The translations under genes and the position numbers were made by a program. The notes under the pieces were generated by a model. The model had not been told where the DNA came from. It made no database searches and saw only the letters and a program-made list of their open reading frames with translations. From a virus (taxonomy: Duplodnaviria > Heunggongvirae > Uroviricota > Caudoviricetes): a stretch of DNA of 64,000 bases. Each line of letters opens with the position of its first letter. Positions within the stretch are counted from its first letter, which is position 1. The stretch is from positions 73,429-137,428 of IMG/VR virus record IMGVR_UViG_3300031787_000010, one strand, 5' to 3'. Positions 16,556-63,930 of the stretch are shown one piece after another.

Positions 16556-16558
16556 ACA

Positions 16559-18303: not shown

Positions 18304-18306
18304 ATT

Positions 18307-20675: not shown

Positions 20676-20690
20676 GTATATAATCCTCTA

Positions 20691-21193: not shown

Positions 21194-21219
21194 TAAGTAT
21201 CATTCAAAGTCACCAAACA

Positions 21220-23282: not shown

Positions 23283-23292
23283 AAATAACCTC

Positions 23293-25265: not shown

Positions 25266-25293
25266 AGAAATGACCTCGCAGAAGTATACTCTA

Positions 25294-25322
25294 AATATAC
25301 CATCTGCGAGGCCACTTGTCAA
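25294..25322 (-). promoter_or_regulatory. sigma70 consensus promoter TTGACA-N17-TATATT upstream of the SpoU-like gene
   Basis: The -10 is bracketed by the 9-bp inverted repeat CCTCGCAGA/TCTGCGAGG (25274-25282 and 25303-25311). Confidence 0.5.
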
Positions 25323-25327
25323 GTCTA

Positions 25328-26262: not shown

Positions 26263-26278
26263 AGTAACCTCGTAAATA

Positions 26279-26941: not shown

Positions 26942-26984
26942 ACAATAAACCTCTGGTCATTTTGTGGAAATAACCATTAGTATC

Positions 26985-27006
26985 TATAAATAGTAATGTA
27001 TTACTA
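26985..27006 (-). promoter_or_regulatory. plus-strand TATAAATA motif overlapping the 7-2-7 palindrome TAGTAAT-GT-ATTACTA, upstream of the lipoprotein gene
   Basis: Seen directly in the sequence. Confidence 0.3.
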
Positions 27007-27042
27007 TCTAGTCCTATACTATGTTTATTATATTTTCTTAAT

Positions 27043-36169: not shown

Positions 36170-36420
36170 TAGTCGCCTTTTGTTTGTGGCTTTAGTGTAT
36201 CAACGAATGTTTCAATCCGATATGAAATCTGTGCAAGATACAAAAGTATCCCATCCAGTATCTTCATAAAAATAGCAACCGGCCAAAAAATCCAGTAGAA
36301 CAACGACGGTTCATACTTTCCAATCAATCCCATTTTAGCACAGATAATCATAAACAGAAAACCAAATGCGAAATATGCTGCAAGACCAATAATAAATCCC
36401 ATAGTAGTAACAGTAATCAT
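36169..36420 (-). CDS. small membrane protein
   Basis: Two predicted transmembrane helices. Confidence 0.4.
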   Translation of the reverse strand: MITVTTMGFIIGLAAYFAFGFLFMIICAKMGLIGKYEPSLFYWIFWPVAIFMKILDGILLYLAQISYRIETFVDTLKPQTKGD

Positions 36421-37598: not shown

Positions 37599-37709
37599 TA
37601 TTATTTCCAAAAAGTTTTTTAAGAAGTTTGTGCATACCCATCACGAACAATCCAAATCCAAACACGAACAATCCCCAATACTGGTCGATGTCATTCTGTT
37701 CGGTTGTCA

Positions 37710-38822: not shown

Positions 38823-39695
38823 TTATTCTCCAGAAATTGCTCTTCCTTTTAATTGTTCCCAATCACGTTCTGGTCTATCTACTAAAACATTACGACCCCA
38901 TACCGCACGTAGTAGTGGTGTAGGTGTGTTGTTGTTTTTAGCATAGGAAATTAATGCGGATAAATCTTTGGGAAAACAGGTTCCACCAAATCCTTTATGT
39001 CCATCTGGACCAGGCACCTTCCAGTGCGTTTTTCCTAACCTACTATCTTCAACTAACAACCGTTCTATTTCCTTCCATTCAACACCAGCATTATTTGCGA
39101 TATCTGACATCTCATTAGCAAATGAAACTTTTGTGGCTAGAAACAGATTGGCTGTGTATTTGAATAACTCTGCTGTTGTGGCAGAAACTACTTTTCCTAA
39201 TCGCAAGGTTTTAAGTACTTTGGATTGATTCTCCAATACCCACTGCGATGTCTCTTGGGAAGCCAACGAAGGTTTTCCTATTAACATAACTTCTTGATTT
39301 AGATAGTCGTCTAAATAGTTAGCCTCCGTGAGAAATTCTGGATTAAACAGAATGGTTTGATTATTATATAAGTTTTGTAGTCGTTCTGTTGTACCAGGAG
39401 GAACTGTGGATTTTATGACGATTATTTTTTTATCTTCCGTCATACATAAATCGTGAACAACACTTTCTACTATTCTTGTATCACACTCACCAGTTTCTAA
39501 CATAGGCGTTGGTACAGCGACATATATAACATTTGCTGTATTTAAGAATTCCTCAAATGATTGACACGATGGATTTTTAGATTGATCTATGTCAAATGTA
39601 TGAACGTTATATCCAGCAAGTTTGTACGCATTCAATACGGCACTACCAACATATCCCAATCCCACAACTCCTATTTCAACTTTAGACGGTATCAT
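38823..39695 (-). CDS. UDP-glucose/GDP-mannose dehydrogenase-family protein (short)
   Basis: N-terminal GVVGLGYVGSAV and the catalytic Cys motif GGTCFPKD; only 290 aa. Confidence 0.65.
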   Translation of the reverse strand: MIPSKVEIGVVGLGYVGSAVLNAYKLAGYNVHTFDIDQSKNPSCQSFEEFLNTANVIYVAVPTPMLETGECDTRIVESVVHDLCMTEDKKIIVIKSTVPPGTTERLQNLYNNQTILFNPEFLTEANYLDDYLNQEVMLIGKPSLASQETSQWVLENQSKVLKTLRLGKVVSATTAELFKYTANLFLATKVSFANEMSDIANNAGVEWKEIERLLVEDSRLGKTHWKVPGPDGHKGFGGTCFPKDLSALISYAKNNNTPTPLLRAVWGRNVLVDRPERDWEQLKGRAISGE

Positions 39696-39698
39696 ATA

Positions 39699-40604
39699 TC
39701 AAAACTCAAAGAACTTTTCAGCGTTCTCATTTATAGGGTTTAACGTACAATGTTCAGGTACAACATATTCTCCTTCTTTTCTAAAAACCAACACATATTC
39801 GTGAACTTTACTGGTGTATCGTTTTGCCGCAACCTTTCCGGCTTGAAGTGCGGCAAACGGAGAATTGTTTTTGATAATTACAATATCGTGAAACAGTAGT
39901 CCAGCGTCTTTTGTAAATGTATTAATAGTATCTGAATGGAATGGATAGAATTTGTTCTTCCCACTCCAATCTCTGAAGTCAGCACAGACCCACACACAAA
40001 ACGCACCGGGTTTTAGAACACGTGCAATATTCTTTCCACATACAGTAATCATCTGCATGAACTCATCATAAGACTCTGTACTGGAAAGTTGTGCATCTAC
40101 ATCCTCATACTTTTCAATGTTCCAGTATGGAGGACAAGTCATCACTAAATCAACAGTAGCGTCAGCCGTGTGTTTCAATTGTGTCCCATCGTCAAGATGT
40201 AAACTTGCCGACAATCCAATTTCTTTCATATGCTCCGTTACACGTTTATGGGTACTAGGAGAAATTTCGTACCCTTCATATGTACGGTTTAATGTAGTAG
40301 AAACTACGGCACGTGTGGCACGTCCCATAAATGGGTCAACGATATGTGAGCCGGGTAGGCTCCAGTATTTAACAATGTTTTCGCATAGACCTGCGTGAAA
40401 TTCACTAAATCCCAATCCAGGCAAATATTCCGACGTATCACTTCTACGCTTTTCTTCATCAATTTGATCAATATATGCCACATCCCATTTTGCTTTACTT
40501 TCCCGCGTTGGTTCTATAATAGACAATGGTAGCCAACCAAATTGGTCCGCTACCTTTGCATCTTCATAAAATGGAAGTGTTTGTTTATATAACCGTTTAG
40601 TCAT
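39699..40604 (-). CDS. DNA amino-methyltransferase (N6-adenine or N4-cytosine)
   Basis: Motif I DPFMGRATR and motif IV TCPPYW. Confidence 0.7.
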   Translation of the reverse strand: MTKRLYKQTLPFYEDAKVADQFGWLPLSIIEPTRESKAKWDVAYIDQIDEEKRRSDTSEYLPGLGFSEFHAGLCENIVKYWSLPGSHIVDPFMGRATRAVVSTTLNRTYEGYEISPSTHKRVTEHMKEIGLSASLHLDDGTQLKHTADATVDLVMTCPPYWNIEKYEDVDAQLSSTESYDEFMQMITVCGKNIARVLKPGAFCVWVCADFRDWSGKNKFYPFHSDTINTFTKDAGLLFHDIVIIKNNSPFAALQAGKVAAKRYTSKVHEYVLVFRKEGEYVVPEHCTLNPINENAEKFFEF

Positions 40605-43968: not shown

Positions 43969-44392
43969 CTATTCGTTCCCATGCATACTGTGCGTTAAGT
44001 TTAAACATTCCAACGTATCCACCCCAAAAGGCAGACTGTGGTGGGACTAATGAAAAGAATCTAGTTCCATTGGGTTTCTCATAAAGATGATATGATTGAC
44101 CCATAATCGGTTTAAACCCAATCGATGCTTCATAACACATCTGATTGATGTCATAATCTGAAACTAGTTCTTGAAACTGACGTACTAACTCATTATATCG
44201 TTCGGTATAATAATGCTTAAACGTAGGACTTACATCAGCCTTCCACTTATCAATCTCTACTGGTTTCAGAGATGCTGGAGTGTTGGGTGTAGTTCCATAC
44301 GTTAAAGCATTAGGATTTTTATATTCATCTGTCACATCAGAATTCTCCTCGTTCACGCACCGACACGCCAACAGGGAAAATCGGAATTCCAT
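43961..44392 (-). CDS. hypothetical protein
   Basis: ORF in operon context. Confidence 0.4.
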   Translation of the reverse strand: MEFRFSLLACRCVNEENSDVTDEYKNPNALTYGTTPNTPASLKPVEIDKWKADVSPTFKHYYTERYNELVRQFQELVSDYDINQMCYEASIGFKPIMGQSYHLYEKPNGTRFFSLVPPQSAFWGGYVGMFKLNAQYAWERIDE

Positions 44393-45437
44393 CCTTGCTC
44401 AATTCAAAATAGCGAACGGTCAAGTATTTGCCGATAAGCTTCTTGCGGTTCTTATAAAGTTCACTACGATTTTCCTGCGAACCCTCTGGGCGGCAATTGA
44501 AACGAGCACCCGAATCAGTTTCCAGTTCAAAAATTGCGAGGCCGGAATCACTACCATCGCCGTCAACAACATCAACAATACGATACTCTGCATCTGTAAA
44601 ATCCTTAAGTTTAAGAAGTGAATAAGACCGCTTATTAATTTCATAATTCATACCAGGATCACGCACCATCGTACCCTCAAACCCATCGTGCACGAACAGA
44701 TTGTGTAAGTGCATCACCTGTGACTCATCATCTACCTTCACAGTCTTGACCCGAACCACATTCTCTGGCACATTCTGAAGTAGACTGTCTAGAATTTCCT
44801 TACGGGCACCATACGGAAGGTCTGGTTCCACAATGTCATAAACGTGATAGAGAAGTTTTGGAGACAAGTCTGGACGATACTTCTTGATAGCCTTCATGCT
44901 CTCTTGAAGGAGAACATTATCGGGCAACATCAATTCACCGTCCAAGACGTATCCCATCGTATCAAACTTCAAGTGTTCAATCACTTCGGGAATGACTTCC
45001 TTGTTTCCACGACTCCATCCATTCTCCCCGTCAAACAGCATCCGCATACCATTCAACTTGGGTTGGACGTAAACGGGAAAATCCATCTTACCCTTGTGGT
45101 CAGCGAACTTGTGGGCGAGCATCGGCATCGGACGAACGTTCTTCCGTTCACCCTTGGCACGAAATCCCTTGTCACGCTGCTTCTTAATAATAGCATCGAA
45201 CTCGAAGTCAGCCTGCTCCCGTGAGTTGCGCTCATTCGCACGACCAACGTTAGTAGGAGCTGCGAAATATGGATCAGAGAACTGGCGCTTTGTCTCACGA
45301 CCCGTCTTGCTAATTTGATACCATTCGGTTTGTGTATAATACTCATCACCGTCCCGAACGACATGGAGACGCCAGAACTTCTCACCACCATTCTTGTTTT
45401 CAGAAATCAGCCACTCACTAGATTTAACGTTGTTCAT
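44337..45437 (-). CDS. ATP-dependent DNA ligase
   Basis: Nucleotidyltransferase motifs: I KLNGMR (KxNG), III VLDGEL, IV EGTMVRD, V LLKLK. Confidence 0.7.
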   Translation of the reverse strand: MNNVKSSEWLISENKNGGEKFWRLHVVRDGDEYYTQTEWYQISKTGRETKRQFSDPYFAAPTNVGRANERNSREQADFEFDAIIKKQRDKGFRAKGERKNVRPMPMLAHKFADHKGKMDFPVYVQPKLNGMRMLFDGENGWSRGNKEVIPEVIEHLKFDTMGYVLDGELMLPDNVLLQESMKAIKKYRPDLSPKLLYHVYDIVEPDLPYGARKEILDSLLQNVPENVVRVKTVKVDDESQVMHLHNLFVHDGFEGTMVRDPGMNYEINKRSYSLLKLKDFTDAEYRIVDVVDGDGSDSGLAIFELETDSGARFNCRPEGSQENRSELYKNRKKLIGKYLTVRYFELSKDGIPIFPVGVSVRERGEF

Positions 45438-46452: not shown

Positions 46453-47217
46453 CTAGTTCCAGTAATTTACTTTGGCTTTTTCAAAGTGTTTGAGATTATT
46501 TCTATTGAAGAAGTTGACGGTCATATACCATAGCATCCCCAAGTATCCTAACTTCTTGAATCGACGTTCATCTTGACCGAAGTAGTGGTCACCGATTTGA
46601 AAATATTTAGCATGATATTCTCTGCTCAATATATAATCTTCTGATGTCTCATACTTGTTCGGAAATGCACCGAAGTACTCAAATGCATCTCGTCTAGTGA
46701 GAAAGAATGCCCCAATCGCAAATGGAGTTTTTTTGGTCATAATCTTATTGATAATATTGAATGCCCAGAAAAAGAATGAAGCACGTAAATCACTTCCATA
46801 ATTTTTGATGTTCAATGTCATCAAATCCAGATTGAATGTTCGCATCTGATATAAGGTATCACTAATCGCTCGTGGATGAAAGAATCGGACATCAGCATCC
46901 AAGAACAGTATATACGGAGTAGTAACTAATTTCGCACCGTTGTTTCGTCCAACAGATACATTTCCACCTTTGATGACTTCGATATTGAGGTCACCCTTGT
47001 ACGTGTTTATAAGAGGGACAGTAGCATCGGTACTATCGGCATCTGCGATAATGATGCGGACATCTCCAATATCGTGCTGTTGAAGCAAATCTTCCAATAA
47101 AGGGACAATATAGTTTTCTTCATTCTTACACGGGATAACAATCGTCAGTAAATCTTTCATACGCACCTCATTGGGGGTGTTTATATACATATCAAAACGC
47201 AAACCACTCCGACGCAT
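46453..47217 (-). CDS. glycosyltransferase family 2
   Basis: LTIVIPCKNEE...DADSTD...LDADV GT2 motifs. Confidence 0.65.
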   Translation of the reverse strand: MRRSGLRFDMYINTPNEVRMKDLLTIVIPCKNEENYIVPLLEDLLQQHDIGDVRIIIADADSTDATVPLINTYKGDLNIEVIKGGNVSVGRNNGAKLVTTPYILFLDADVRFFHPRAISDTLYQMRTFNLDLMTLNIKNYGSDLRASFFFWAFNIINKIMTKKTPFAIGAFFLTRRDAFEYFGAFPNKYETSEDYILSREYHAKYFQIGDHYFGQDERRFKKLGYLGMLWYMTVNFFNRNNLKHFEKAKVNYWN

Positions 47218-49714
47218 TCTGATTGACTTCGGTGGGAATGTTTCCCCATTTCAGTGCGGAATAAAAATCATCCAATTTATTTCTTAATTCATTATCGAAC
47301 AAGGCATCGGTATCGATATACTGTTGAATAAAGTCGGTGATTTGTGGAGGATCTTGATATCCCTTAACTGCTACCGCTTCAATCTGTAACGGGTTCTTTT
47401 TCAGATAAACATACTTAATCTTTTCACCATCTGAAATCGGTTCGTATCGGTCATCGATTCCAAAGTGTACCAGCAATCGATTATAGATAATAGCCGACTT
47501 AATGTGGGCGGGAGTAGACTTCTTTGCCGCCTTCAACCCCACCACGTTATCCATTACATATTCAGAGATGTTATTTGCCGCAGTATTTCGAGCAATATCT
47601 AGATAGTTTCTATCATCCAACGATGCCTTGAACTCCAAGATTTTAGTGTCCATTTCCTCTTTATGCATACCCTTCAAAATATCCTTCAACATCTGACGCA
47701 TGAAGTCACCAAATGCTTTCGGGAAACTTGAACGAACTACATCCAATCCCTTAACCACCATCTTACTGACATCTTGACTCGTTTCCAAATCATACACCTT
47801 ATCAAGTGCATATCGCTTCTTTGATACCCAGAACCCCGTAGATGCAACGGATTCACCCTTGATGTAAAAACGATGCGAATTGCAATTAAAAGCACGTTTT
47901 GCGAACGTGTCATAAAATTTATTTAACAATGCTTCCATCTCACGTGCTTTTTCAATCGTAAACTGCTTTGCATCAGCGTCTGGTGGAAGGATAGGTTTTG
48001 CTGAAGCATAGATGGAGTCGGTGTCGATATACGTTACATAGTCCCCCGCCTCTCCCAACAACTTTTCATACTGCTTGTTTACTAATTTGGCACTAGATTT
48101 AATAACGTCTTGTCCTGTAATTGTAACCGCAGCAGCGTTGTCAACGTCATAGAAACGGAACACAGGCAACCCAAGAACACCATACAACGAATTCAAGAAA
48201 ATCTTCTGAATATGTTGGCGTCGGTCATAATAGTCTGCCATTTCCTTGTTTCCTTCGTTGACATACTTCTTCATCGTGTTCTTATATTCGACACGCTGAC
48301 TAAACCACGTATCAAGAACTTCTGGAATAATACCCTTCTTATCGTTCGTATACAGTACACCATTCGAACTTACCGATAGATTATTATCCGTAATGAATTC
48401 CATAAATGTATCGTAGTCCATTTCCATAGAAGAGTCTGTACCCTTTTCCTCAACAACATAAGCAGTAATCTCTTTACGGAAATGTTGTTCCATATTCCAG
48501 TTCCGAACAAATCCAATCTTCGTTTCTGGGCTGATGTTAAGACTCATAATGATGGATGGATACAGCGATTGCAAGTCGAGAGAATATACCCAATCATACA
48601 AACCAGGTACCGGCTCTTTCACATATGCACCGATAAACCCTTCCTCTCCACGGTCAAGTGCTTCCATCTTCTCACGACTATCTTGCGGTTTATCCGTCAC
48701 GATAATTCCCTTACGATGAAGGTAAGTGACGATGGTGCCTTCGAGGAATCGTGACGACATTGGATAGTCCTCATACGGCACGTGTCCGATGTGACAAATA
48801 CCACGCACAAGTTCGATGAGCTTCAACTTCTTGTCAAGCTCAACAATGATACGCACGTCTTGTAGGTTATACTCAATAAACTTATCAAGGTCATCTCGAA
48901 ACAATTGATCGAGAGAACCTTCATATGGAATCTTACCCATATTGACTTCAATGCGACCAATTGTATCAAGTCGATAGTTTGGTTGCTGTGTATAAGTAAA
49001 CTTCTTGTATAGGTCAAGATAGTCCAGCGAACTTACTCCAGCAATTCTATATTTTTCCTGTCGTTCGGAATATTTTACCTTACCGATTGGGGACAGCCGA
49101 TTGGCAACAGAGGGACCGCAGACTTGTCGGATACGATTATACAAATATGGTACGTCGAAATAGTTACTATTCCAACCGGTGATGATTGTGGGTTGAATTT
49201 CTTCGTACAAGGAGATGAACTTATGGAGTAAGTCAACTTCCGTAGGACAGAATATCGTATCCACTTCTTCCGTCATTCTATTGTCGTACAACTTTGTTGT
49301 ATCAAGTACGAACACCGTGTATTTGTTTGTTGTTGGATCATATGCAGCAATTGAAGTGATTTCATTATTAGGCTTATGAATATTTGGAATACCATTTGCC
49401 ATCGACACCTCAATATCGAAAAACATCACAATGTTCCCTTCGGACGGCGTATCCTCGTCTAGATAAACATCCGTCAACACCCGTGTTTCTTTTGGCAAGT
49501 CACTCTCAAACACGTTTGGGTGTCCACGCATAAATCGGCGTGTCTTACTCAAACGTTCACCCGTCATACTTATAAACTTGCCCTTCGGGTCTTTTACATA
49601 TGCATAATTGAAATCTGCCCACGGCAAAATAATCAACCCCTGTTTATCGTCCCAAATATAAACAGTAGGTGATTCATCACCGTGCATATCAACATATATG
49701 TTTTTATAAGCCAT
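47192..49714 (-). CDS. family-B DNA polymerase with 3'-5' exonuclease
   Basis: Exo I FFDIEV, pol motif B KIFLNSLYGVLG, motif C YIDTDSIY; 840 aa. Confidence 0.9.
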   Translation of the reverse strand: MAYKNIYVDMHGDESPTVYIWDDKQGLIILPWADFNYAYVKDPKGKFISMTGERLSKTRRFMRGHPNVFESDLPKETRVLTDVYLDEDTPSEGNIVMFFDIEVSMANGIPNIHKPNNEITSIAAYDPTTNKYTVFVLDTTKLYDNRMTEEVDTIFCPTEVDLLHKFISLYEEIQPTIITGWNSNYFDVPYLYNRIRQVCGPSVANRLSPIGKVKYSERQEKYRIAGVSSLDYLDLYKKFTYTQQPNYRLDTIGRIEVNMGKIPYEGSLDQLFRDDLDKFIEYNLQDVRIIVELDKKLKLIELVRGICHIGHVPYEDYPMSSRFLEGTIVTYLHRKGIIVTDKPQDSREKMEALDRGEEGFIGAYVKEPVPGLYDWVYSLDLQSLYPSIIMSLNISPETKIGFVRNWNMEQHFRKEITAYVVEEKGTDSSMEMDYDTFMEFITDNNLSVSSNGVLYTNDKKGIIPEVLDTWFSQRVEYKNTMKKYVNEGNKEMADYYDRRQHIQKIFLNSLYGVLGLPVFRFYDVDNAAAVTITGQDVIKSSAKLVNKQYEKLLGEAGDYVTYIDTDSIYASAKPILPPDADAKQFTIEKAREMEALLNKFYDTFAKRAFNCNSHRFYIKGESVASTGFWVSKKRYALDKVYDLETSQDVSKMVVKGLDVVRSSFPKAFGDFMRQMLKDILKGMHKEEMDTKILEFKASLDDRNYLDIARNTAANNISEYVMDNVVGLKAAKKSTPAHIKSAIIYNRLLVHFGIDDRYEPISDGEKIKYVYLKKNPLQIEAVAVKGYQDPPQITDFIQQYIDTDALFDNELRNKLDDFYSALKWGNIPTEVNQNASEWFAF

Positions 49715-51782: not shown

Positions 51783-54353
51783 TCATCCCATCAATTCTTT
51801 TATGTTAACAAAGGTAATTCCAGAATCAATTAAAGACTGATTGTTCTTTTTGATTTCTTCAAAGAAATTCCATGCCAACACTAAAATAATATCTGGTTTA
51901 TCCTCGTTAATCTTATCCTTTGAGAAGATAGGAATCTTCACACCTGGAACATACTTTCCATGCTTTAGTGTGTTGTCCTCAACGATGTAAGAAATTTCTT
52001 CATTTGTCAATCCGAAATAGTTTAAAGCTGTGGTTGCTTTCGCTGGTGCTCCATATCCAACAATCTTTAAACCGTTCTTCTTCATCATCTTAACATTTTT
52101 AACGATGTTGTTTTTTGCCGATTCCACTCTCTTGGCAAAGTTAACATACGTTTCATATTTGTCAAGACCACATTCCAATTCTTGTGCTAAAAAGTATGAA
52201 ACACTTGCATCCACATTCTCTGGATTCTTTGCGATATAGACTCGGATAGAACCACCGTGAGTATTCACGTGCTCAACCTTATAGACTTTATAACCCAATA
52301 TATTAAAGAAGTTATTGAGTGACAACACACTCCAATAATTGAAGTGTTCGTGATAGATGTTATCGAACGTCAAATCTTGTATTGTGTTTAATAGGTATTG
52401 TACTTCAATAATCAACGAACCATCTGGCTTAAGTAACGTAAATGCGGCGTTTGCCATTTCCTTCAAGTCGTTCGCATGAGCAAATACATTTGATGCAGTA
52501 ACTACATCGGCATGACCGTGAGTACTAACGATTTCATTTGCTACTCCTGTATTGAAGAAGGAACATATTGTAGGAACTCCTGCGTTTCGTGCCAACTCTA
52601 CAATATTTTCAGCAGGTTCTACACCCAAAACTCTTACATTCTTTTCCATAAATGGCTTCAAAGCAATACCATCGTTCGAACCAATATCAACGACCAACGA
52701 CTCTTCTGTCAAATTAAACTGCTTCGTGTATGAATCGGCTGCTTGTACGAAATGTTCTCTAAATGATTTTGATGTTGACGACACATACAGATAATGCTTG
52801 AACATTTTTTCTGATGGTACTGAATATGATAGCTGACAGTTATGACTGTCTGGACTATACATCAACTCTAGTGGAAACATTTCACACGGTTCTTCTGATG
52901 AGTCTAGTAGGTTGTTTGCTAACGGTGACAGTCCCAACGATAATACCGGCTTGATATTATCGTTTCCCGTAATTCTATCTGATGTCTTGTAATCCCGTAA
53001 CAGTTCATCTCTAAACTTCTCGTCTACCAGTACGTATGGAATCGTGTGTGTAACGCCATAGTTTTCATGCTTACGTTCACCACGAACCAGATTTAAAAAG
53101 ATAGAGTCTTTAGTAAACACCATTGTATGTGCAACATTTGGACGGATAACAGACAAGTCACCTTCATTAATTACCTGTGTTTCAATCTTTGCGTTTGGTA
53201 CAGACAAATCTTTGATGACACTAATGTACTGACCCTTAATGAGTAAGCACTTCTGCTCTTGTACAGGATGATAGTGATTTGCCCGAACAGATCCTGCCTT
53301 TGATTCAATGTATCCAATCAAATTAATAGGTTCTGTTAATTCGTAGTTACTAATCTTTCCGCGTGAATCAACATATTCATCACCACCACGAAGAATATAT
53401 TCCAATCGTTCAGGCTGTTCACGTTCCGACCAGTTGGTTACCATCTCTTTAATAGCGGATGTAAGTTTATTTTGGAATGTAAATCCCGTTGATAGCAACT
53501 TTTTGTTTGATAACGTATATCCTACGTTTGGAATCTCATCATCCGTTTCAATGAGATTGGTATCTGGTTCAATCGATTTGACAATTTCTGCTACCTGCTT
53601 AACTGTCATATTCTCATCAGTTAGATGGAAGATTTCATTCTTGATGTCACTACGTTCTTCCATAAACTTAAAAGAACGCACAACATCGTGAATACAAACC
53701 AACGACTTTAATTGTACGCCGCGGCCGAATAGTTTCAATGTAGCATTTTGCGATGCCATCTTTGAAAAGAGATTTGGCATGATACCGATACGCATTGTAT
53801 CCGTAGAGTATCCATATACCGAACCCAATCGTAAGATAACATAATCCTTGCCAGATGATTTAATATCAAGTTCATTCTGGTATTTACTACGAGAATATGT
53901 TAATACCGGAGTAGGTTGCTCTGTTTCTTCAATATCAAACTTTGCGTCGGGGAATCCTTCGAACACAACGTGTGTGGAAGGGAACACAATCTTACAATGT
54001 GAAGGAATGTGTTTCAGAATATTCAGCGTACCCTGAATTGCAGTACGCTGAATCTCGTTATCCTTTTCTGTATTTGATTCGGTTTTCGTATAAGCTACAT
54101 CAGTAATACCGGCGAGATGGTGAACAACATCTGCATCCTTTAAAATTTCAGACATTTTTTCGTCGTCCAAAATACTACATTGAACGAAGTCGATTCCCCA
54201 ATCACGTAATTGCTTAACACGTTCTGAAACGAATCTATTGTCGGTAACTACAATTTTCTTAAATCGTGCTTCACCGGAATATAACTTTGTCAGTTCCGAC
54301 CCGATATATCCCAACCCGCCGGTAATTACTACTTTCTTATGTCCCATATACAT
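51783..54353 (-). CDS. tri-domain sugar-nucleotide modifying enzyme: SDR epimerase/dehydratase + cupin (ketoisomerase/3,5-epimerase-like) + class-I SAM methyltransferase
   Basis: N-terminal ITGGLGYIGSEL; central cupin (ANHYHPVQEQKCLLIKGQY); C-terminal methyltransferase motif I VVDIGSNDG. Confidence 0.7.
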   Translation of the reverse strand: MYMGHKKVVITGGLGYIGSELTKLYSGEARFKKIVVTDNRFVSERVKQLRDWGIDFVQCSILDDEKMSEILKDADVVHHLAGITDVAYTKTESNTEKDNEIQRTAIQGTLNILKHIPSHCKIVFPSTHVVFEGFPDAKFDIEETEQPTPVLTYSRSKYQNELDIKSSGKDYVILRLGSVYGYSTDTMRIGIMPNLFSKMASQNATLKLFGRGVQLKSLVCIHDVVRSFKFMEERSDIKNEIFHLTDENMTVKQVAEIVKSIEPDTNLIETDDEIPNVGYTLSNKKLLSTGFTFQNKLTSAIKEMVTNWSEREQPERLEYILRGGDEYVDSRGKISNYELTEPINLIGYIESKAGSVRANHYHPVQEQKCLLIKGQYISVIKDLSVPNAKIETQVINEGDLSVIRPNVAHTMVFTKDSIFLNLVRGERKHENYGVTHTIPYVLVDEKFRDELLRDYKTSDRITGNDNIKPVLSLGLSPLANNLLDSSEEPCEMFPLELMYSPDSHNCQLSYSVPSEKMFKHYLYVSSTSKSFREHFVQAADSYTKQFNLTEESLVVDIGSNDGIALKPFMEKNVRVLGVEPAENIVELARNAGVPTICSFFNTGVANEIVSTHGHADVVTASNVFAHANDLKEMANAAFTLLKPDGSLIIEVQYLLNTIQDLTFDNIYHEHFNYWSVLSLNNFFNILGYKVYKVEHVNTHGGSIRVYIAKNPENVDASVSYFLAQELECGLDKYETYVNFAKRVESAKNNIVKNVKMMKKNGLKIVGYGAPAKATTALNYFGLTNEEISYIVEDNTLKHGKYVPGVKIPIFSKDKINEDKPDIILVLAWNFFEEIKKNNQSLIDSGITFVNIKELMG

Positions 54354-56267: not shown

Positions 56268-57656
56268 TCACTCTTCGTCAGAAAAATCGCTGTGTAATTC
56301 ATTAAATTTCTTCGCCAACGTTTTCTTTAACATACTCTCTCCAGCCTGCATTTGCTTCTTCAACAAAATACCCTTTGAGGAGTTTTCATCATATATTTCA
56401 ATCTTACCGAGGCTAGTATTCATGTATACGGGAAGCGTAATACCGTCAGCCCCAAATCGATTCTTCATTAAGTGTGCACGACCTGTGTGATTGGCTTTAT
56501 CTTCTAGCTTACGGGATAGGGAGATTACGAGGTCGGCGGTCATAATCTTATTGTAGGATTCGGAAATCTTATCGGCCTGAATGATGTCATCCTGAATACT
56601 AGAACGTTGAGTTTGTGAGGCCGTCCAACACGGAATACCCAACTCACCACTCATTCCACGAATTTCTTCATAGATGGCACCCAACTCTTGATAACGGGCA
56701 TCTGCTCTATCCACAGACCGCATCAAATCAGCGTAGTCAATCAACATAATATCCGGCTTCATCTTATTACCGATTAAGTGTTCAAGATGTGCTCGAAGTG
56801 TGTGTACAGTTACACTACGTGCAGGATAATACTTGATAATAATATCGCCAGGTATGTTATCTACCATATCACGCACTTTATCTGGATGGCTTGTGATACT
56901 ACCAGGTTCGATTCCCGTAAAGATGGTATCATATCGAAGCCCAACGTAATTTTCATTTAATTCAAGTGTATAGTGTACAACACGTTTTCCAGCTTTAGCA
57001 GCATTTGCTCCAATCGTAGCAAGCGCCCAACTCTTACCAATACCAGAAGGTGCGGCAATGACTCCAAGCTCTCCAGCAGCCAATCCACCACCCGTGAACG
57101 CATCAATAGCGTCCCAACCCGTTGGTACACAAATACGAGAGACGCCAGCAAGACGCATCGCAATATCTTCTTTCCAATTATGTCCGATATTACGAGGTTG
57201 TCCTGCTCGGAGTGCCCCATCAATAATATTTTTGATTTCACCATATTGACCAACTTGCAAAAGATCAACAGATTTTACAATCGCAGACTTTAATGCTTGA
57301 TTCTTTGCAAAGTCCAAGAAACTATCCTTAACGTATTCCAAATCATCATCGTTCTTTCTTTGGAATGCGGTACGAAGTTGCTCTTTTACAGCAACCTTCA
57401 AAACTTCATCCTTTTCCTTTTCTAACTCAAGCTTAAAAACCTCAAGTGTTGGAAGGGACTTGTAATTACCAAAATAATTTATAGTTTCTTCGACAATCCA
57501 TTTACCAGCATCATTCTCAAAAAAGTTTGGATTCAACACATCAAGTGATTGCTGCAAAAATTCAGTAGATGACAAAATACATGCCATTACCTTTGCTTGA
57601 AATGAAGGACCAAACTTTGCTAGATTGTCTACGTTCGTATCATGCTGTGGAGTCAT
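56268..57656 (-). CDS. DnaB-family replicative helicase (gp41-like)
   Basis: Walker A APSGIGKSW and a DnaB C-terminal fold pattern. Confidence 0.85.
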   Translation of the reverse strand: MTPQHDTNVDNLAKFGPSFQAKVMACILSSTEFLQQSLDVLNPNFFENDAGKWIVEETINYFGNYKSLPTLEVFKLELEKEKDEVLKVAVKEQLRTAFQRKNDDDLEYVKDSFLDFAKNQALKSAIVKSVDLLQVGQYGEIKNIIDGALRAGQPRNIGHNWKEDIAMRLAGVSRICVPTGWDAIDAFTGGGLAAGELGVIAAPSGIGKSWALATIGANAAKAGKRVVHYTLELNENYVGLRYDTIFTGIEPGSITSHPDKVRDMVDNIPGDIIIKYYPARSVTVHTLRAHLEHLIGNKMKPDIMLIDYADLMRSVDRADARYQELGAIYEEIRGMSGELGIPCWTASQTQRSSIQDDIIQADKISESYNKIMTADLVISLSRKLEDKANHTGRAHLMKNRFGADGITLPVYMNTSLGKIEIYDENSSKGILLKKQMQAGESMLKKTLAKKFNELHSDFSDEE

Positions 57657-58692
57657 TGTGGAACCTATTTAATGGTATAAAATTCTGAGCTATCCAACTG
57701 TCGTAATGTTGGAAACCTCCTAGTAACTTATTCTTCATCATCAACTTTGTCAAGTCGTATTTACGCAACTCAACAGTATGATTATGAAACATATTCGCAA
57801 CTTTTAAACGTGCATCGTTTGACATAATTCCTTCATGCAAGTTCATTAATACTATATTACGTTCAACTATATCTTTATTACCTAAAATGTTTTGTATCAT
57901 CTTGGGTACTTTCTTTTCATTTGCATATTTTTGTTCAATAAAATCAATAGAGATGGTTGCCGATGGATCTGCGATTTCTGGAATATACTTCTTTAATGTA
58001 GTTTCTCCAACGCCTTTTACTCCATCAATGTTATCACTCTTGTCACCGTTTAATGCACGGAAGAAGTGAAAGTGTGCGGGATGAATACCATAATCTTCCA
58101 AGATAACATCCACATCAAATGTTTTCTTTTTAACAGGATTATATACCTTGACGTTTTCACTTGCTAGCTGAAAGAAGTCTTTATCCGTTGAATAGATAAT
58201 ACTCTTCCCACCTTCTTGTGTAACCAGTTGTGAAAGATATGCAATCACATCGTCTGCTTCCACGTTATCCAACGCAAGAATTGTCAACGGTAAACATTCT
58301 AACATTTCTATCAGAGTGACCAATTGCCACTTCATATTTTCTTTTTCTTGCTCATCCGTTGTTAAATCATATGCACGATTCAAACGCACTGGTGGCTTTC
58401 GGTTTGCCTTGTACTGTGGGTATATCTTACGTCTGCGTTGACTTCCACCTTTCCCGTCAAACACGACAACACAACGTGTCGGTTTAAAGGTACGGATGGC
58501 AAGACCAAGACTCTTAAGAAATCCCATCATTCCACCAATATGATTACCATCTTCATCCATCGAAGGAACAGCGGCATAAGAACGTATGAATAAATTCATC
58601 GCATCGATTAACAGGACATGGGAATTATATCCCATGCCCTGCTCGTCGTTTTCAAACTTCATATTTTGAAATATATCTTGTAAGTTAACCAT
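57640..58692 (-). CDS. RNase H / 5'-3' flap endonuclease (T4 rnh-like)
   Basis: LLIDAMNLFIRSY and acidic cluster motifs of the FEN family. Confidence 0.8.
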   Translation of the reverse strand: MVNLQDIFQNMKFENDEQGMGYNSHVLLIDAMNLFIRSYAAVPSMDEDGNHIGGMMGFLKSLGLAIRTFKPTRCVVVFDGKGGSQRRRKIYPQYKANRKPPVRLNRAYDLTTDEQEKENMKWQLVTLIEMLECLPLTILALDNVEADDVIAYLSQLVTQEGGKSIIYSTDKDFFQLASENVKVYNPVKKKTFDVDVILEDYGIHPAHFHFFRALNGDKSDNIDGVKGVGETTLKKYIPEIADPSATISIDFIEQKYANEKKVPKMIQNILGNKDIVERNIVLMNLHEGIMSNDARLKVANMFHNHTVELRKYDLTKLMMKNKLLGGFQHYDSWIAQNFIPLNRFHNDSTA

Positions 58693-58906
58693 TTAGTAAT
58701 TGCCTTGTGGTAGTACTTTTTGTTTCAGGAGAATATTTCCATCCGAACAAAAGTCTTACCATAAATTTATGAAACCAATTTGGATGCTTCTTATATACTG
58801 GAAATCGTGTACCACCGATATCCCAATGTCCCACATGCAACGCTGGAACAATAGCGGCATGTGAGAAATTGGAATAGGTCCGTGTATTATTCGTCGTCTG
58901 ATGCAT
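58685..58906 (-). CDS. hypothetical protein (73 aa)
   Basis: ORF coupled between uvsX and rnh. Confidence 0.35.
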   Translation of the reverse strand: MHQTTNNTRTYSNFSHAAIVPALHVGHWDIGGTRFPVYKKHPNWFHKFMVRLLFGWKYSPETKSTTTRQLLNG

Positions 58907-60023
58907 CTGCGATACTCACTGCTTCAGGATCAAACTCACTCTGATACTTCATAATTAACGAATCACAAATCTCGTTGTAGAGTAGTTCCTTACGTTCCAT
59001 ATCTGATTCAAGGAATCCTGCGAACTCCTTCGATTGGAATTTGGTTTCTTCACCCGTTTCAGGATCTTCATAGGTGTACCACGCACCAGCTTGCTTCACA
59101 AGCTTCAAATCCTTCATCATCTTAAGCCACGCACCCGTATCATCAATACCACGATTGAAGTAAATCTCAAACTCAGCAGTACGATGCGGCGGTCCCAAAC
59201 GATTCTTCACAATGTTTGCTTTCACCTTTACACCAATTACATCACCCGATGAGTTATTAATCTTTCCCATCAAATTCAATCGGAGACGAGTCGAAGCATG
59301 GAACGCAATCGCCTTACCACCCGAGGTTGTCCACGGGTCAGAGAATGCCATAGCGTTGAGCTTCTGACGGAGTTGATTGGTAAAGACGAGTGCAATCTTT
59401 TCTCTGCCAAGTAGGCCGGTAATCTTTCGCATCGCCTTACTGATGATGATAGCCTTGTCCGTTGCATACCCATCCTTACCGAAGTCGGCTTCCATTTCTT
59501 TCTTCGTCGAAGCTGCGGCAACAGAGTCCACGACAATCGTAACCAACTTGTCCTTATCCTTTCCAGAACGGACTTTTTCAATAATTGTAGTAATTGCATC
59601 AAAGATTTCCTCAACAGTCTGGAGATGAACATAAACCAGCTTGTTCGTATCAATCCCAACTGCACGGAAGAACTCTGGATTGACTGCGGTTTCTGTGTCA
59701 ATCAGAACACCAACACCACCGCGTTTCTGTGTGTTTGCAATGAGCTGTGCACCGAGTAGAGACTTACCACTACCTTCCAATCCCGTCAATTCGGTAATAC
59801 GACCAACAGCGATACCACCATGCGGACGATTACTAATAGCAACGTCAAGCATCGTAGCACCGGTAGAAATAAAATCTGTAAAGTCGGTAGGCGTTTCTTC
59901 ACGACCATCAAGGAAGAATGCAATCTGGTCGCTGTCTTTGTTTAACTTGTTTAGTGACTCTGCGATAAGAGACGCCAACTCGTCGCGGTCTGGTTCTTGA
60001 ATAACCTTCTTTTCTTTTGCCAT
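58887..60023 (-). CDS. UvsX/RecA-family recombinase
   Basis: GRITELTGLEGSGKSLL Walker A. Start set at MAKEKK (60023), which has a GAGGA RBS and removes the overlap with the gp32-like gene. Confidence 0.85.
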   Translation of the reverse strand: MAKEKKVIQEPDRDELASLIAESLNKLNKDSDQIAFFLDGREETPTDFTDFISTGATMLDVAISNRPHGGIAVGRITELTGLEGSGKSLLGAQLIANTQKRGGVGVLIDTETAVNPEFFRAVGIDTNKLVYVHLQTVEEIFDAITTIIEKVRSGKDKDKLVTIVVDSVAAASTKKEMEADFGKDGYATDKAIIISKAMRKITGLLGREKIALVFTNQLRQKLNAMAFSDPWTTSGGKAIAFHASTRLRLNLMGKINNSSGDVIGVKVKANIVKNRLGPPHRTAEFEIYFNRGIDDTGAWLKMMKDLKLVKQAGAWYTYEDPETGEETKFQSKEFAGFLESDMERKELLYNEICDSLIMKYQSEFDPEAVSIADASDDE

Positions 60024-60096: not shown

Positions 60097-60879
60097 TTAG
60101 TTAAATACTTCGTCGAATTCGTCAATCATATCTTTGACTGACGTTGACTTCTGCGTAGTCGCAGACTTTGTTGCTGTCACGGACTTTGGTTCGTCCTTAG
60201 CGACAGGCGCCGATACCGTTGCCTTACTATCAGGGTCAAGATAACGCTCGAGAGCGACCTTAAGCTCCTCATAAGTGGGTTCCTTAAAGATTGCACGAAG
60301 GTCGGGCTGATTCTCAAGGCATCCCTTGATCTTGTCAGCGGAATCCGAAAGCGGAGTCTGGTTCGGCTTTGGACGAACCATCGTCTTGGCGAAGTTCGTG
60401 TCGGACTTCTCCTGTGGGATATACTCAACCACAATATCACGACCATTCTTTACGTCTGTGATGTCGCCGTAATCGGGGTCAGCGATGATAGAAAGAAGTT
60501 CCTGATAAACCGTCTTACCGAATGACATAAATCGAACACCCTTCTCTTCCTCACCACGAACGACGATGGGAACAAAGGTACGGAGCTTCGGACGGAAAGG
60601 ACGAGCCTGTGCGTAATCGTCTTTAGTACCTCCCGACGCAATCTCCTCAGCGAATTCCATAATCGGATCGCGATTACCATACGAGGTCGGGGAAAGATAG
60701 GTCTTGTTACCTAGATAATGAAAATACAGTTCAGCAAAAGGATTTTCCTTGTTTTCCTTCCACGGAACAATACGAACGACCGTCTTACCTTCGGTCGGCT
60801 TCCAAAGTGCTTCTGAACGTTCACCCTGGCGATTAAACTGGTTAAGTTTAGCTTTTAGTGCGGCAATGTTTAGACTCAT
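60097..60879 (-). CDS. gp32-like single-stranded DNA-binding protein
   Basis: N-terminal pattern KLNQFNRQGE..LWKPTEGKTVVRIVPWKENKENPFAELYFHY parallels the T4 gp32 N-terminus; an acidic C-terminus is also present. Confidence 0.65.
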   Translation of the reverse strand: MSLNIAALKAKLNQFNRQGERSEALWKPTEGKTVVRIVPWKENKENPFAELYFHYLGNKTYLSPTSYGNRDPIMEFAEEIASGGTKDDYAQARPFRPKLRTFVPIVVRGEEEKGVRFMSFGKTVYQELLSIIADPDYGDITDVKNGRDIVVEYIPQEKSDTNFAKTMVRPKPNQTPLSDSADKIKGCLENQPDLRAIFKEPTYEELKVALERYLDPDSKATVSAPVAKDEPKSVTATKSATTQKSTSVKDMIDEFDEVFN

Positions 60880-60967: not shown

Positions 60968-61792
60968 TTAGCGATTATTTATCCAAAATACTCTTACTTT
61001 AATTTTTGATTGTCGGCCTTCTGGTAATTGATTATTAAGACCGTGAAATTCTTCAATCTTACTACGAAATAAATATACTAACATTTCATTAGTATTCAAA
61101 TTTAATACGATTTGGCTTGTGGTACTCATTTCCGCTGTATCACGTGCCATATTTAACATAGAATTTTTTGGGTAGAACGGTTGTCGAAGAGCACGCGCTA
61201 TATCGTGATAATCATTAACTGCTGATAACTGTTTTTCTGCACTTATCTTACGAATCTTTGAAGATAAATATTTTATACCTTCTGTATATCCTGCGTCGGT
61301 ATATAAGTGCCCGTGATTGGTACGAACAGTAATATCTTCCATATTCAATGGTTTGATGCTCACCGCATGTCTTGACGTATTTTCTATGACCGCTCCTTGT
61401 CGAGCGTTTGCTACAATCGTGTGTCCCTTGATGCCACCGTCAAATCCAGCCGCAGACTTTATGGCTCCTTTTAAATCTTTGTGACCTAACGCAGCCATAA
61501 CGCGTGGAGCGTCTTGGGATTTTTGTCCAGACTTTTTAACTAATTGTTTTTCTTTTTCGTCAAATCCTACCATCAATGCGGTATTTAAAATACCAATACC
61601 GTGTTCATTCATACCTTCAACCCATCCAGTTGTCATATCATGAAATAAACACACCTCGGTATTATCCACCAATCGTCGAACAATTTCAACTTGTGGGTTG
61701 TATGATCTATCACGATTCTTTGCTATAATGACATTAGAACCGATTGTAGATGCGGCTACAATACATTCCCCAAGATGTGATGGTGTGTTCAT
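60968..61792 (-). CDS. hypothetical protein (274 aa)
   Basis: No firm motif; an N-terminal Cys at position 10 could indicate an Ntn-hydrolase fold. Confidence 0.4.
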   Translation of the reverse strand: MNTPSHLGECIVAASTIGSNVIIAKNRDRSYNPQVEIVRRLVDNTEVCLFHDMTTGWVEGMNEHGIGILNTALMVGFDEKEKQLVKKSGQKSQDAPRVMAALGHKDLKGAIKSAAGFDGGIKGHTIVANARQGAVIENTSRHAVSIKPLNMEDITVRTNHGHLYTDAGYTEGIKYLSSKIRKISAEKQLSAVNDYHDIARALRQPFYPKNSMLNMARDTAEMSTTSQIVLNLNTNEMLVYLFRSKIEEFHGLNNQLPEGRQSKIKVRVFWINNR

Positions 61793-61797: not shown

Positions 61798-62199
61798 TTA
61801 ACAGTCAATAATTTTAGATAATTTTGTATTAATAGCCTTAAGTTTTCCGTAAGCTGTTACTAACACCATATTTTTTAACTCGGTCCAATCAATTTTGTAC
61901 GATGTATCTAAAACGCCACCATTTTTTTGTTCTATCAATTTGTTGATTGCGTTTATAGTATAAATTGTATTTGTGTGCTTTTTTCTGTGTACTGAAATTG
62001 TTGACGGTGGTGGTGTTAACTTCAAGCTATCACTCTTTGCAACGTTATACGTTAGAATGAGTTGTGAAGCATCTTCAACGTTTTCCAACAAATAGACTTT
62101 ATTAAACATTAATTTATATGTAGCTTTTATGTCGTCTATTGTCTTTTCCAATCCGTCTACCGTTGTAAACGTACACAGTAGTTGGGTTTGTTCTTCCAT
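61798..62199 (-). CDS. hypothetical protein (133 aa)
   Basis: ORF in operon context. Confidence 0.4.
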   Translation of the reverse strand: MEEQTQLLCTFTTVDGLEKTIDDIKATYKLMFNKVYLLENVEDASQLILTYNVAKSDSLKLTPPPSTISVHRKKHTNTIYTINAINKLIEQKNGGVLDTSYKIDWTELKNMVLVTAYGKLKAINTKLSKIIDC

Positions 62200-62250: not shown

Positions 62251-63525
62251 TCAAAGTTCCTCTTTTAGAACATCATAATTGATTCCTGAATACAATCTTA
62301 CTGGGAAGTTTTCTTGTTGTAGTATCTCCCGAATATCGTGTTTTATTGTACTTATCTCGTCAGGATGGCAATCTAACAGAATTGCATCATAAGTGTAAAG
62401 AATCAATTTAGATTTCTTATCTTCAAGATATTCCAAAACACTTTTTAGTTTAGGAATTGTTTTTTCAAATTCATAACATTGGACAAAATAATTAAACAAC
62501 TTATGTTCGGAAACATCTTGGTCTTGAACGTGAATTCGTCTTTTACTGATTGGTGCAACAAATCCTCTTTCTTGATAATCTGAATAAATACGGCGTGACA
62601 GTTCCTTAATACTTTTTAGTAGTGGAATGTCAGTTTCTACATCAGCACCATAGAGGATACTAAACGTGATTTGTTTACCTTCCTCATATTCTTCTTTTGT
62701 GAGAAAGTCTTTTTGATAATACTGCTTCGCCAAATACGTGTGAATTGGTTCGATTGGCATATCGATATTCATATAATGTCCAATCAATCTTAAGTGATAT
62801 GCTTCAAAATCCATCTGCACTAGATTTCCACCAGCGAATCTACTTATAAACGCTGCACGACTGCCATCCGTTTTGTTTAACGCGGCAAAATTAATTTTTC
62901 CAAATCTGTTACTAGGTCTACCGGTCATAGTATATGGATGATATTGTGAGTATACCAACCCATCTGTAATCAACCGACTTACCTTATCACCAAAATGTGA
63001 AATCAATAGCTTTTCATCTACAGCCAAACCAGCCGATTCAATTTTTCGTAAAACCGATACAGCAATTTTAATAAATGTATTTTCCATACCAGCTATATCA
63101 TCTGCACCATTTAGTTTATGTAATATAGTGTTATGATATTTTCTAATTACACTAGACCAGACTGTAATAGGAACTATTTTATTCACATCCTTTGTATTCT
63201 GAAACATCATATGCGTTTCTTTTACATACCAAGAAAATACATCTTCAATCTCTGGAAAAGACATATTTGCTACATAACCTAAAGTATTTATACGATCTGT
63301 GTGGAGTGTAAGAAATGTATTTTTAGGTACATCGAATATTGGTGCATCTTGATGTGTAATAGATAATGTATAAAAGTCGCCATTAAAAAATGTATACCCA
63401 ATGCATAACGTCGGATTAGACGCAGGATGTTTATGGATATCACGAAAAATCGGGGTGCATAAATGCATTTCCCGATTCATTCGTTCAACCAATTCATCAT
63501 ACTGTTGTTTATGATTAATAACCAT
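62251..63525 (-). CDS. minimal family-A DNA polymerase (polymerase domain only, no exonuclease)
   Basis: Pol I motif A LVQMDFEAYHLRLIGHY (Klenow LVSADYSQIELRIMAHL), motif B KQITFSILYG (Klenow KAINFGLIYG), motif C LILYTYDAILLD (Klenow MIMQVHDELVFE). Confidence 0.7.
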   Translation of the reverse strand: MVINHKQQYDELVERMNREMHLCTPIFRDIHKHPASNPTLCIGYTFFNGDFYTLSITHQDAPIFDVPKNTFLTLHTDRINTLGYVANMSFPEIEDVFSWYVKETHMMFQNTKDVNKIVPITVWSSVIRKYHNTILHKLNGADDIAGMENTFIKIAVSVLRKIESAGLAVDEKLLISHFGDKVSRLITDGLVYSQYHPYTMTGRPSNRFGKINFAALNKTDGSRAAFISRFAGGNLVQMDFEAYHLRLIGHYMNIDMPIEPIHTYLAKQYYQKDFLTKEEYEEGKQITFSILYGADVETDIPLLKSIKELSRRIYSDYQERGFVAPISKRRIHVQDQDVSEHKLFNYFVQCYEFEKTIPKLKSVLEYLEDKKSKLILYTYDAILLDCHPDEISTIKHDIREILQQENFPVRLYSGINYDVLKEEL

Positions 63526-63930
63526 TTATCCCTCGGACTGCCAATACTCCGTATAGTCTGTAATATACTTGTGGATACCACCAAATGTCAAGTCAGCTTT
63601 ACGAACCGACTCTTTGTTAGTATCCCGTACTCCCATAGAAGTTACCCCGTTAGATAATATAGTATTATCTTTTTTACCGACAATTCTCCACTTTACCATT
63701 GCTGTTATAAATCGTGGATTAGTTTTAAAATCAGAATATTGGCGTTCATCAATTTCCGATACATAATCAATATGATTACTCGGTCTTACAAAATATCGTT
63801 TAAGATATTTATTTTCTACGTCTTGTAATGTGACTATGGGAGGAGTCACTACAGGACTTTTTTCAAACTGTTCTAATATGTTTTTCTTATCTTTTGGGTA
63901 TATCTTGTTTATCAAATTAATGTCAGACAT
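63526..63930 (-). CDS. hypothetical protein; its TAA stop is immediately followed in frame by the ATG of the PolA-like gene
   Basis: 134 aa. TTGACA-N17-TAATAT abuts its ATG. Confidence 0.4.
   Translation of the reverse strand: MSDINLINKIYPKDKKNILEQFEKSPVVTPPIVTLQDVENKYLKRYFVRPSNHIDYVSEIDERQYSDFKTNPRFITAMVKWRIVGKKDNTILSNGVTSMGVRDTNKESVRKADLTFGGIHKYITDYTEYWQSEG

Follow-up and report, generated by a model that had tools for sequence, protein, structure and literature searches.

A divergent branch of phage family-A DNA polymerases was described in 2024 under the name divPolA1 (PMC11348598, Virol J 2024;21:200, section 'Two novel phage PolAs'), with the enzyme of the Flavobacterium phage vB_FspM_immuto (hereafter immuto) as type example. 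These polymerases keep the catalytic residues of the palm, have a truncated thumb and an inactivated 3′-5′ exonuclease domain, and are followed by a conserved downstream replication context. They were listed in 14 genomes, and in divPolA1 phages the regular DNA polymerase (DNAP) is swapped among families A, B and C while divPolA1 stays constant (PMC11348598). A literature search turned up no later paper mentioning divPolA1. Here we report on a 64,000-nucleotide stretch of a Caudoviricetes genome (positions 73,429 to 137,428 of IMG/VR record IMGVR_UViG_3300031787_000010; 'the window' means this whole stretch), which encodes a 424-amino-acid (aa) family-A polymerase beside an 840-aa family-B polymerase. 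There is little room for doubt that the 424-aa protein belongs to divPolA1. The enzyme type was thus already published in 2024, and the window protein adds one member to it.

The second novel polymerase of the same paper, divPolA2 of barbaviruses, resembles the window enzyme in being a divergent extra PolA next to a regular PolB; it has no active exonuclease, which is probably also true of the window enzyme. It differs in its N-terminal globular domain, which is not homologous, and in a gene context that varies (PMC11348598), whereas the window polymerase has an exonuclease fold and a conserved context.

The closest annotated relatives in the phage collection were immuto gp1, to which the window protein is only about 32% identical (31.6%, tblastn E 3e-36), a 'hypothetical' protein of the Microcystis phage Mel-JY01 and an open reading frame (ORF) of the 484-kb uncultured phage LR756508. 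A profile made from relatives of the 424-aa protein (A2) matched immuto gp1 over its full length with 228.7 bits and gave no match to gp71, the regular PolA (777 aa) of immuto. The gene order small polymerase, gp32-like single-stranded DNA (ssDNA)-binding protein (SSB), RecA, flap endonuclease (FEN), DnaB and ribonucleotide reductase (RNR) is shared by the window, immuto, Mel-JY01, LR756508 and metagenomic loci. Homology to the named members, an additional regular DNAP, the downstream gene order, the palm residues and the truncated thumb were thus all found in the window. An identical copy of the 134-aa protein encoded just upstream of the polymerase occurs on a 191,683-bp contig, in line with the genome size of divPolA1 phages (roughly 155-190 kb). 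The window enzyme and the type example have in common a size of about 410-455 aa, probably the inactivation of the exonuclease domain, the presence of a further, regular DNAP and a genome of about 190 kb; the window enzyme differs in coming from a freshwater clade with a PolB as regular polymerase. Megablast of positions 61500-64000 against the phage collection found no match, so the collection contains no closely related sequenced phage.

The 14 published genomes represent only a small part of the family, whose extent and signature are added here. A database search with the polymerase returned 3173 matches, the best 120 of which were all full-length (about 410-436 aa). A hidden Markov model (HMM) search of 1.84 billion cluster representatives (clusters at 50% identity) found 646 at E<=1e-30; the best 150 of these were 263-470 aa long and none carried an N-terminal extension. 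At least 590 IMG/VR contigs encode the family. In 185,579 bacterial and archaeal species genomes (GTDB scan) no relative was detected, so there were no prophage or host clues. A family that is large, confined to viruses and constant in architecture argues that the polymerase is not a pseudogene; the possibility of a degraded, unconserved region, raised in the preliminary description, is contradicted by the 646 representatives and by 49 invariant alignment positions. divPolA1 is a constant core gene heading the replication-recombination module of myovirus-like phages of roughly 155-190 kb, beside an interchangeable regular replicase. With at least 646 clusters at 50% identity it forms a large virus-only branch of family A. 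As it is the constant polymerase where the proofreading replicase is freely swapped, its role would show how labour is divided among the polymerases of large phages.

Assignment to family A was clear: the 424-aa protein matched Pfam DNA_pol_A above the curated cutoff (39.1 bits, cutoff 34.3, E 5.7e-10) and PHROG 17 'DNA polymerase' (E 5.4e-16). Pol I motifs A, B and C, which had been noticed from the letters, were confirmed by these matches and by alignment to Klenow. The residues read D239-F-E-A-Y-H244-L-R in motif A, Y280..K284..F288..Y292-G293 in motif B and Y379-D380-A381 in motif C, which is indeed YDA and not HDE. In the profile-to-Klenow alignment D705, E710, R754, K758, F762, Y766, H881, D882, E883 and E887 of Klenow correspond to D239, H244, Y280, K284, F288, Y292, Y379, D380, A381 and D385, respectively. 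All of these positions, D239 and H244 of motif A among them, are invariant in an alignment of 75 sequences, except A381, where most relatives have Ser. R203 (TGR motif, primer contact), N345 and Q349 are also invariant, and the 49 invariant positions of this alignment include the catalytic residues. The distant members immuto, Mel-JY01 and LR756508 keep the same active-site pattern. The family signature can be written D-[FY]-x-x-[YF]-H-[LI]-[RK], then Y-x3-K-x3-F-x3-Y-G, then Y-x-Y-D-[AS]-x3-D.

The retained metal ligands and template/primer contacts argue, as far as sequence goes, for an active template-dependent polymerase. Arg754, Glu883 and Glu710 are known from mutants to matter in Klenow. 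The steric-gate residue, the triphosphate-binding Arg and Glu883 are replaced across the whole family, and nucleotide handling may therefore be atypical. The large fragments of Taq and Bst Pol I keep the full thumb, the HDE motif C, Arg754 and Glu710, whereas the window enzyme does not. It departs from canonical bacterial Pol I by the absence of a 5′-nuclease domain, by the YDA motif C and by Tyr280 and His244 at the Arg754 and Glu710 positions. No 5′-3′ exonuclease domain was found in the 424-aa protein by Pfam, as had been stated before; Thermus and Bacillus Pol I carry the 5′-nuclease on the same chain, whereas in the window the FEN is a separate gene.

An AlphaFold2 model was built with the 75-sequence alignment (pLDDT 93.7, pTM 0.91). 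In this model the 424-aa protein has the fold of the Klenow fragment and covers the whole of it; Klenow is a closer structural neighbour than 7pbk, a DpoZ chain of 613 aa. The N-terminal part is modelled as an exonuclease-fold domain with the conserved polar residues D29, H33, N37, S55, H58 and D60, and in the sequence alignment there is no Asp at the expected ExoII and ExoIII helices. Judged by these residues, and partly by PMC11348598, the domain is probably catalytically inactive. The preliminary description had called the enzyme exonuclease-less and minimal. This does not hold for the fold, since a degenerate exonuclease-fold domain is present in the model, and it probably holds for the activity. 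Between the exonuclease-like domain and the palm the predicted structure has only about 40 residues. Profile positions 131-186 aligned to residues 187-241 of the Klenow-fragment chain and positions 176-296 to residues 315-447; chain residues 242-314 are skipped while the query does not advance, which means that about 73 residues of the thumb tip are missing. A compact (about 420 aa), thumb-less enzyme with a probably dead exonuclease domain and unusual steric-gate and O-helix residues could interest enzyme engineers. The positions of the features are collected in Table 1.

Table 1. Positions of the polymerase features, the upstream junction and other genes in the window
Feature	Position	Strand	Remarks
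divPolA1-type family-A DNA polymerase gene	62251..63525	-	424 aa plus stop
Vestigial 3′-5′ exonuclease-fold domain, N-terminal (about aa 1-145), predicted	63091..63525	-	probably without the DEDD catalytic set
Thumb stump, truncated (about aa 146-186)	62968..63090	-	from profile alignment and predicted secondary structure
Motif A, LVQMDFEAYHLRL	62785..62823	-	D239 catalytic; H244 at the steric-gate Glu710 site; Klenow alignment
Motif B (O-helix), YEEGKQITFSILYG	62647..62688	-	K284, F288, Y292 retained; Y280 for Arg754
Motif C, LYTYDAILLD	62371..62400	-	D380 catalytic; Y379 for His881; A381 for Glu883; D385 invariant
Junction	63523..63534	-	Shine-Dalgarno-like GAGGG 63530-63534; TAA stop 63526-63528; polymerase ATG 63523-63525
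134-aa ORF, most likely last gene of the tail/baseplate module	63526..63930	-	same frame as polymerase; no PDB fold neighbour
Conserved basic 133-aa ORF, replication module	61798..62199	-	H71, R72, K74, N77, Y80, N83, N86, W105 invariant
gp32-like ssDNA-binding protein	60097..60879	-	Pfam PF08804, E 2.1e-14
RecA/UvsX-like recombinase	58887..60023	-	378 aa; Pfam RecA, E 1.2e-53
Stand-alone 5′-3′ exonuclease / flap endonuclease	57640..58692	-	Pfam 5_3_exonuc_N, E 8.3e-36
DnaB-like replicative helicase	56268..57656	-	Pfam DnaB_C, E 9.8e-18
Family-B DNA polymerase, T4 gp43-like, proofreading, presumed replicase	47192..49714	-	DNA_pol_B E 1.6e-44; exo1 E 1.5e-23
ATP-dependent DNA ligase	44337..45437	-	Pfam DNA_ligase_A_M, E 3.5e-16
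Clamp-loader-like ATPase	33940..34866
N6/N4 DNA methylase	39699..40604	-
Mom-family protein	32248..33066	-	Pfam PF25680, E 1.3e-44
Adenylosuccinate synthetase homologue, short	21220..22287	-	355 aa; Pfam E 1.5e-84; P-loop GDTGKGK

We then considered the 134-aa ORF that precedes the polymerase in the same frame and is separated from it, as noted earlier, only by TAA-ATG. The junction reads GAGGG-A-TAA-ATG (63534-63523), so that the polymerase has its own GAGGG 4 nt ahead of the ATG. The N-termini of homologues align from residue 1, which places the start of the polymerase at this ATG. The arrangement had raised the question of readthrough, a split gene or a recent nonsense mutation. The same TAA and the identical 134-aa protein were found in five independent assemblies (JGI, ENA, NCBI, IMG/VR), hence the stop is not a sequencing error. 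In all 83 related loci with a complete ORF the polymerase measures 408-455 aa, with an in-frame stop shortly upstream. No fused 134-aa/polymerase homologue occurred in the related loci or among the 150 best representatives of the 1.84 billion searched. An iterative HMM search placed the small-ORF family ahead of the polymerase in 80 loci (71 unique). The two genes are adjacent in 58 of the 71 (gaps -11 to +109 nt), in relative frames 0, 1 and 2 in 30, 11 and 17 pairs; the small ORF of these pairs ends in TAA (43), TGA (11) or TAG (4). In the other 13 unique loci 0.1-2 kb separates them. Exact TAA-ATG abutment was seen in only six unique loci, all of them from the clade of the window.

That the two ORFs are halves of one gene joined by readthrough, or the remains of a recent nonsense mutation, is therefore hardly tenable. 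The common frame, the TAA followed directly by ATG and the 30 in-frame pairs among relatives speak for it, but 28 of the 58 adjacent pairs are out of frame and other genes lie between the two in 13 loci. No fusion occurs in the related loci or among the 150 best representatives, and the stop recurs. Moreover, the 424-aa protein spans the Klenow fold by itself, whereas the 134-aa model has no known fold, and both families have many invariant positions, consistent with selection on each. A small same-strand ORF also precedes the polymerase ORF in S-SBP1-like cyanophages with a split T7-like PolA (PMC10201439). There the upstream ORF is a T7-type exonuclease domain, made by frameshift, whereas here the exonuclease fold is inside the polymerase, and the upstream ORF, for which neither an exonuclease fold nor a Pfam match was found, bears no relation to it. 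More likely the 134-aa ORF would be a separate protein with its own stop, and the polymerase would be translated from its own Shine-Dalgarno sequence and ATG. The abutment would then reflect compact gene packing, possibly with translational coupling, peculiar to the clade of the window.

The 134-aa family follows the genes on its other side. In all 65 assessable loci it abuts a large upstream tail gene (gaps -68 to +23 nt), and this gene belongs to a tail module that also encodes a tape-measure protein (PHROG 167), a baseplate-like protein of 87 aa and a VanY carboxypeptidase of 1180 aa. A matching block closes the immuto genome; it runs from the tape measure through the carboxypeptidase to gp238, and gp238 belongs to the small-ORF family (E 1.7e-20). 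The inserts examined between small ORF and polymerase encode ThyX, PhyH-like and 2OG-Fe(II) oxygenases, DUF6445 and unknown proteins. To judge from the adjacency, the position of the inserts and one fusion, the tail/baseplate module most likely ends with the 134-aa ORF, and the most economical view is that the module boundary falls between it and the polymerase. The AlphaFold2 model of the 134-aa protein (pLDDT 92.2) has no structural neighbour in the PDB, OB folds included; BFVD returned only uncharacterised phage proteins for it, and Pfam and PHROG searches gave no match.

Two observations concern this junction and the small family. In related phages the junction is an insertion hot-spot (e.g. 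L038:1931-3836, L039:3805-4614). At L023:7157-9940 and L024:7999-9933 a 927-aa and a 644-aa protein, respectively, begin with the 134-aa-family domain, and the 927-aa protein has a weak match to collagen repeats, below the Pfam threshold, a hint that the family may serve in fibres or in attachment.

Downstream of the polymerase, the gene nearest to it encodes a basic 133-aa protein. Its family follows divPolA1 at a distance of 12 nt to 4.3 kb in 79 of the 81 loci with enough sequence. Pfam and PHROG searches found no match for it, and the family profile gave only chance-level matches to PDB sequences. This strongly conserved component of the divPolA1 module, which is added here, may be a partner of the polymerase or may act in replication or recombination as a factor that has so far escaped notice. 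Relative to the polymerase, the SSB gene keeps its position in immuto and in loci L008, L009 and L010. The 840-aa PolB, which the preliminary description had reported with exonuclease motifs, has the corresponding Pfam domains and all motifs intact (DIE, NSNYFD, YNLQD, DLQSLYPS, KIFLNSLYG, YIDTDS), and is 45% identical to the PolB of Mel-JY01.

Apart from these genes, a 274-aa ORF (60968..61792, minus strand) separates the SSB gene from the 133-aa ORF. It is present only in the loci identical to the window (5/90) and weakly resembles the Ntn-hydrolase family AAT, below the threshold (E 1.4e-4). In L008:16907-19746 the RecA gene is apparently split into 300-aa and 143-aa pieces with ORFs inserted, one of which has ROS_MUCR/MTES_1575 matches, and in L009:18561-21233 an RNR-like gene contains intein-splicing domains. 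The split gene and the intein suggest mobile-element traffic in the replication module. All non-overlapping ORFs of at least 100 aa in the window are on the minus strand, except 28658..30025(+) and possibly 227..625(+) and 764..2338(+) at the 5′ end of the window. With this layout tail genes pass straight into replication genes, 0-3 nt apart, without an intergenic gap.

What the small polymerase does beside a complete PolB has to be judged from these data. The explanation that we prefer, with moderate confidence, takes the 424-aa protein as a divPolA1 member acting as a short-patch polymerase beside PolB, and the 134-aa ORF as a separate gene of the tail module. The Pol I-like function, considered on its own, is a more tentative assignment made from sequence. 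The enzyme would be an active template-dependent DNA polymerase of low processivity and without proofreading, suited to gap filling in Okazaki-fragment maturation and to recombination-associated synthesis. Its partners would be the FEN, SSB and RecA of the module and the ligase of the window, and it would in effect be a Pol I whose 5′-nuclease is a separate gene, while PolB would perform the bulk of synthesis. The probable lack of proofreading and the stump of a thumb make the enzyme best suited to short, distributive synthesis, and for this reason the Pol I-like role is favoured. Several points weigh against this explanation. T4-type replisomes require no Pol I-like enzyme to mature Okazaki fragments, so it is not obvious why this phage should. 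The exchanges of Arg754 for Tyr, Glu883 for Ala or Ser and Glu710 for His are family-wide, and on the evidence of sequence the activity, the sugar selectivity or the substrate could differ. The tail-module assignment of the 134-aa ORF comes from its context (adjacency, insert positions and the one fusion). Finally, the authors of PMC11348598 pointed out that divPolA1, not the regular DNAP, stands in the conserved replication context, which could mean that it is the main replicase.

If so, divPolA1 would be the true replicative polymerase and the interchangeable PolA, PolB or PolC an accessory or repair enzyme. We think this unlikely. divPolA1 is constant and heads the conserved module of helicase, SSB and recombinase, whereas the regular DNAP varies in family and lies among chaperonin and nucleotide-metabolism genes (PMC11348598); in immuto the regular PolA gp71 adjoins GroES/GroEL. 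However, an enzyme that probably has no proofreading residues and has a thumb shorter by about 73 residues is an improbable choice for copying roughly 190 kb, the exonuclease and polymerase motifs of the window PolB are all intact, a clamp-loader-like ATPase is encoded nearby, and swaps among proofreading replicase families are what is expected of a replicase slot. The residue changes have also to be weighed for a role in initiation, in which divPolA1 would be a primase-polymerase or a ribonucleotide-using enzyme that makes de novo, RNA or mixed primers with a small partner, by analogy to CCPol-MP. An invariant His replaces the steric-gate Glu, and the Ser or Ala after the catalytic Asp may be likened to the HDS motif of T7 RNA polymerase. 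On both sides the gene has a small conserved ORF as neighbour (134 aa upstream, 80 loci; 133 aa downstream, 79/81 loci). No primase was found in the 64-kb window, which is about one third of the genome, and the DnaG primase of immuto gave no tblastn match in it. A PolA working with a small protein as primase has precedent in CCPol-MP of SCCmec and in the Pol-SSB pairs (PMC7581432, PMC10061031), which likewise combine a non-proofreading A-family core with a small ORF in a helicase-bearing mobile or viral module. But immuto has a DnaG-type primase elsewhere in its genome (gp179). CCPol-like enzymes have truncated N-terminal domains, CCPol having lost most of the exonuclease domain, whereas the window polymerase retains the whole exonuclease-like domain. 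The CCPol partner has an OB fold and is encoded downstream, whereas the small ORF of the window is upstream, has no counterpart among PDB folds (OB folds included) and goes with the tail module; no CCPol-type small OB-fold ssDNA-binding partner was recognised beside the polymerase. DNA polymerases are much the closer structural neighbours of the 424-aa model, and CCPol belongs to mobile elements of Bacillota rather than to large lytic phages. We therefore regard a priming role of this kind as decidedly unlikely. Equally improbable in our estimate is a variant in which divPolA1, altered in its chemistry (steric-gate His, Tyr for the triphosphate-binding Arg754, Ser or Ala after the catalytic Asp), and the 133-aa protein form a two-subunit enzyme, e.g. 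a primase-polymerase or a ribonucleotide-tolerant initiator of recombination-dependent replication. If true, a PolA-based primase would have been invented independently for a second time, CCPol-MP being the first.

It had also been suggested that the enzyme might serve translesion synthesis or use non-canonical deoxynucleoside triphosphates in the manner of DpoZ. The nucleotide-binding pocket is altered (Y280, H244, A381), and DNA-modification genes occur in the group: the Mom-family and N6/N4 methylase genes in the window, DpdA and the Que 7-deazaguanine set in immuto. Mom, DpdA and methylase modifications are made after replication, so no special polymerase is required for them, and the Mom-family protein and the methylase suggest that the DNA of this phage is modified post-replicatively. 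The DpoZ clusters form PolA subfamilies of their own (PMC10201439), and the 424-aa protein is not in the phiVC8-like or Wayne-like clusters: it is nearer to Klenow in structure and its sequence relatives are divPolA1 only. The DpoZ enzymes of these two clusters are about 600 aa or more and co-occur with PurZ (PMC12884076), whereas the window polymerase has 424 aa and the adenylosuccinate synthetase homologue in the window is PurA-type. We consider a polymerase for modified or damaged DNA very unlikely.

The Z-genome idea was examined through this adenylosuccinate synthetase homologue. In phage PurZ the catalytic Asp13 is replaced by Ser in 100% of cases (PMC12884076). The Asp is kept in the GDTGKGK loop of the window protein, which makes the gene PurA-type, not PurZ. 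Its two immediate neighbours, a cupin / mannose-6-P isomerase-like protein and an unknown, have no MazG or HD-type domain. On both grounds the presence of PurZ and of a Z genome was rejected, and the analogy to DpoZ fails with it. As the in-frame TAA-ATG does not mark a split gene either, the main value of the analysis on these two points is negative.

Other genes in the window include a phage-encoded 397-aa protein (36417..37610, minus strand) that matches the Druantia defence protein DruA (PF14236, E 1.3e-31). A large set of sugar-nucleotide and glycosylation genes occupies the minus strand at about 2200..27900 and at 38823..39695, 46453..47217 and 51783..54353. It comprises a DegT aminotransferase, GDP-mannose 4,6-dehydratase, several GT1 and GT2 glycosyltransferases and UDP-glucose dehydrogenase, and contains two fusions, HAD with nucleotidyltransferase and an 856-aa epimerase/dehydratase with C-methyltransferase. 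A comparable glycosylation gene set is present in immuto.

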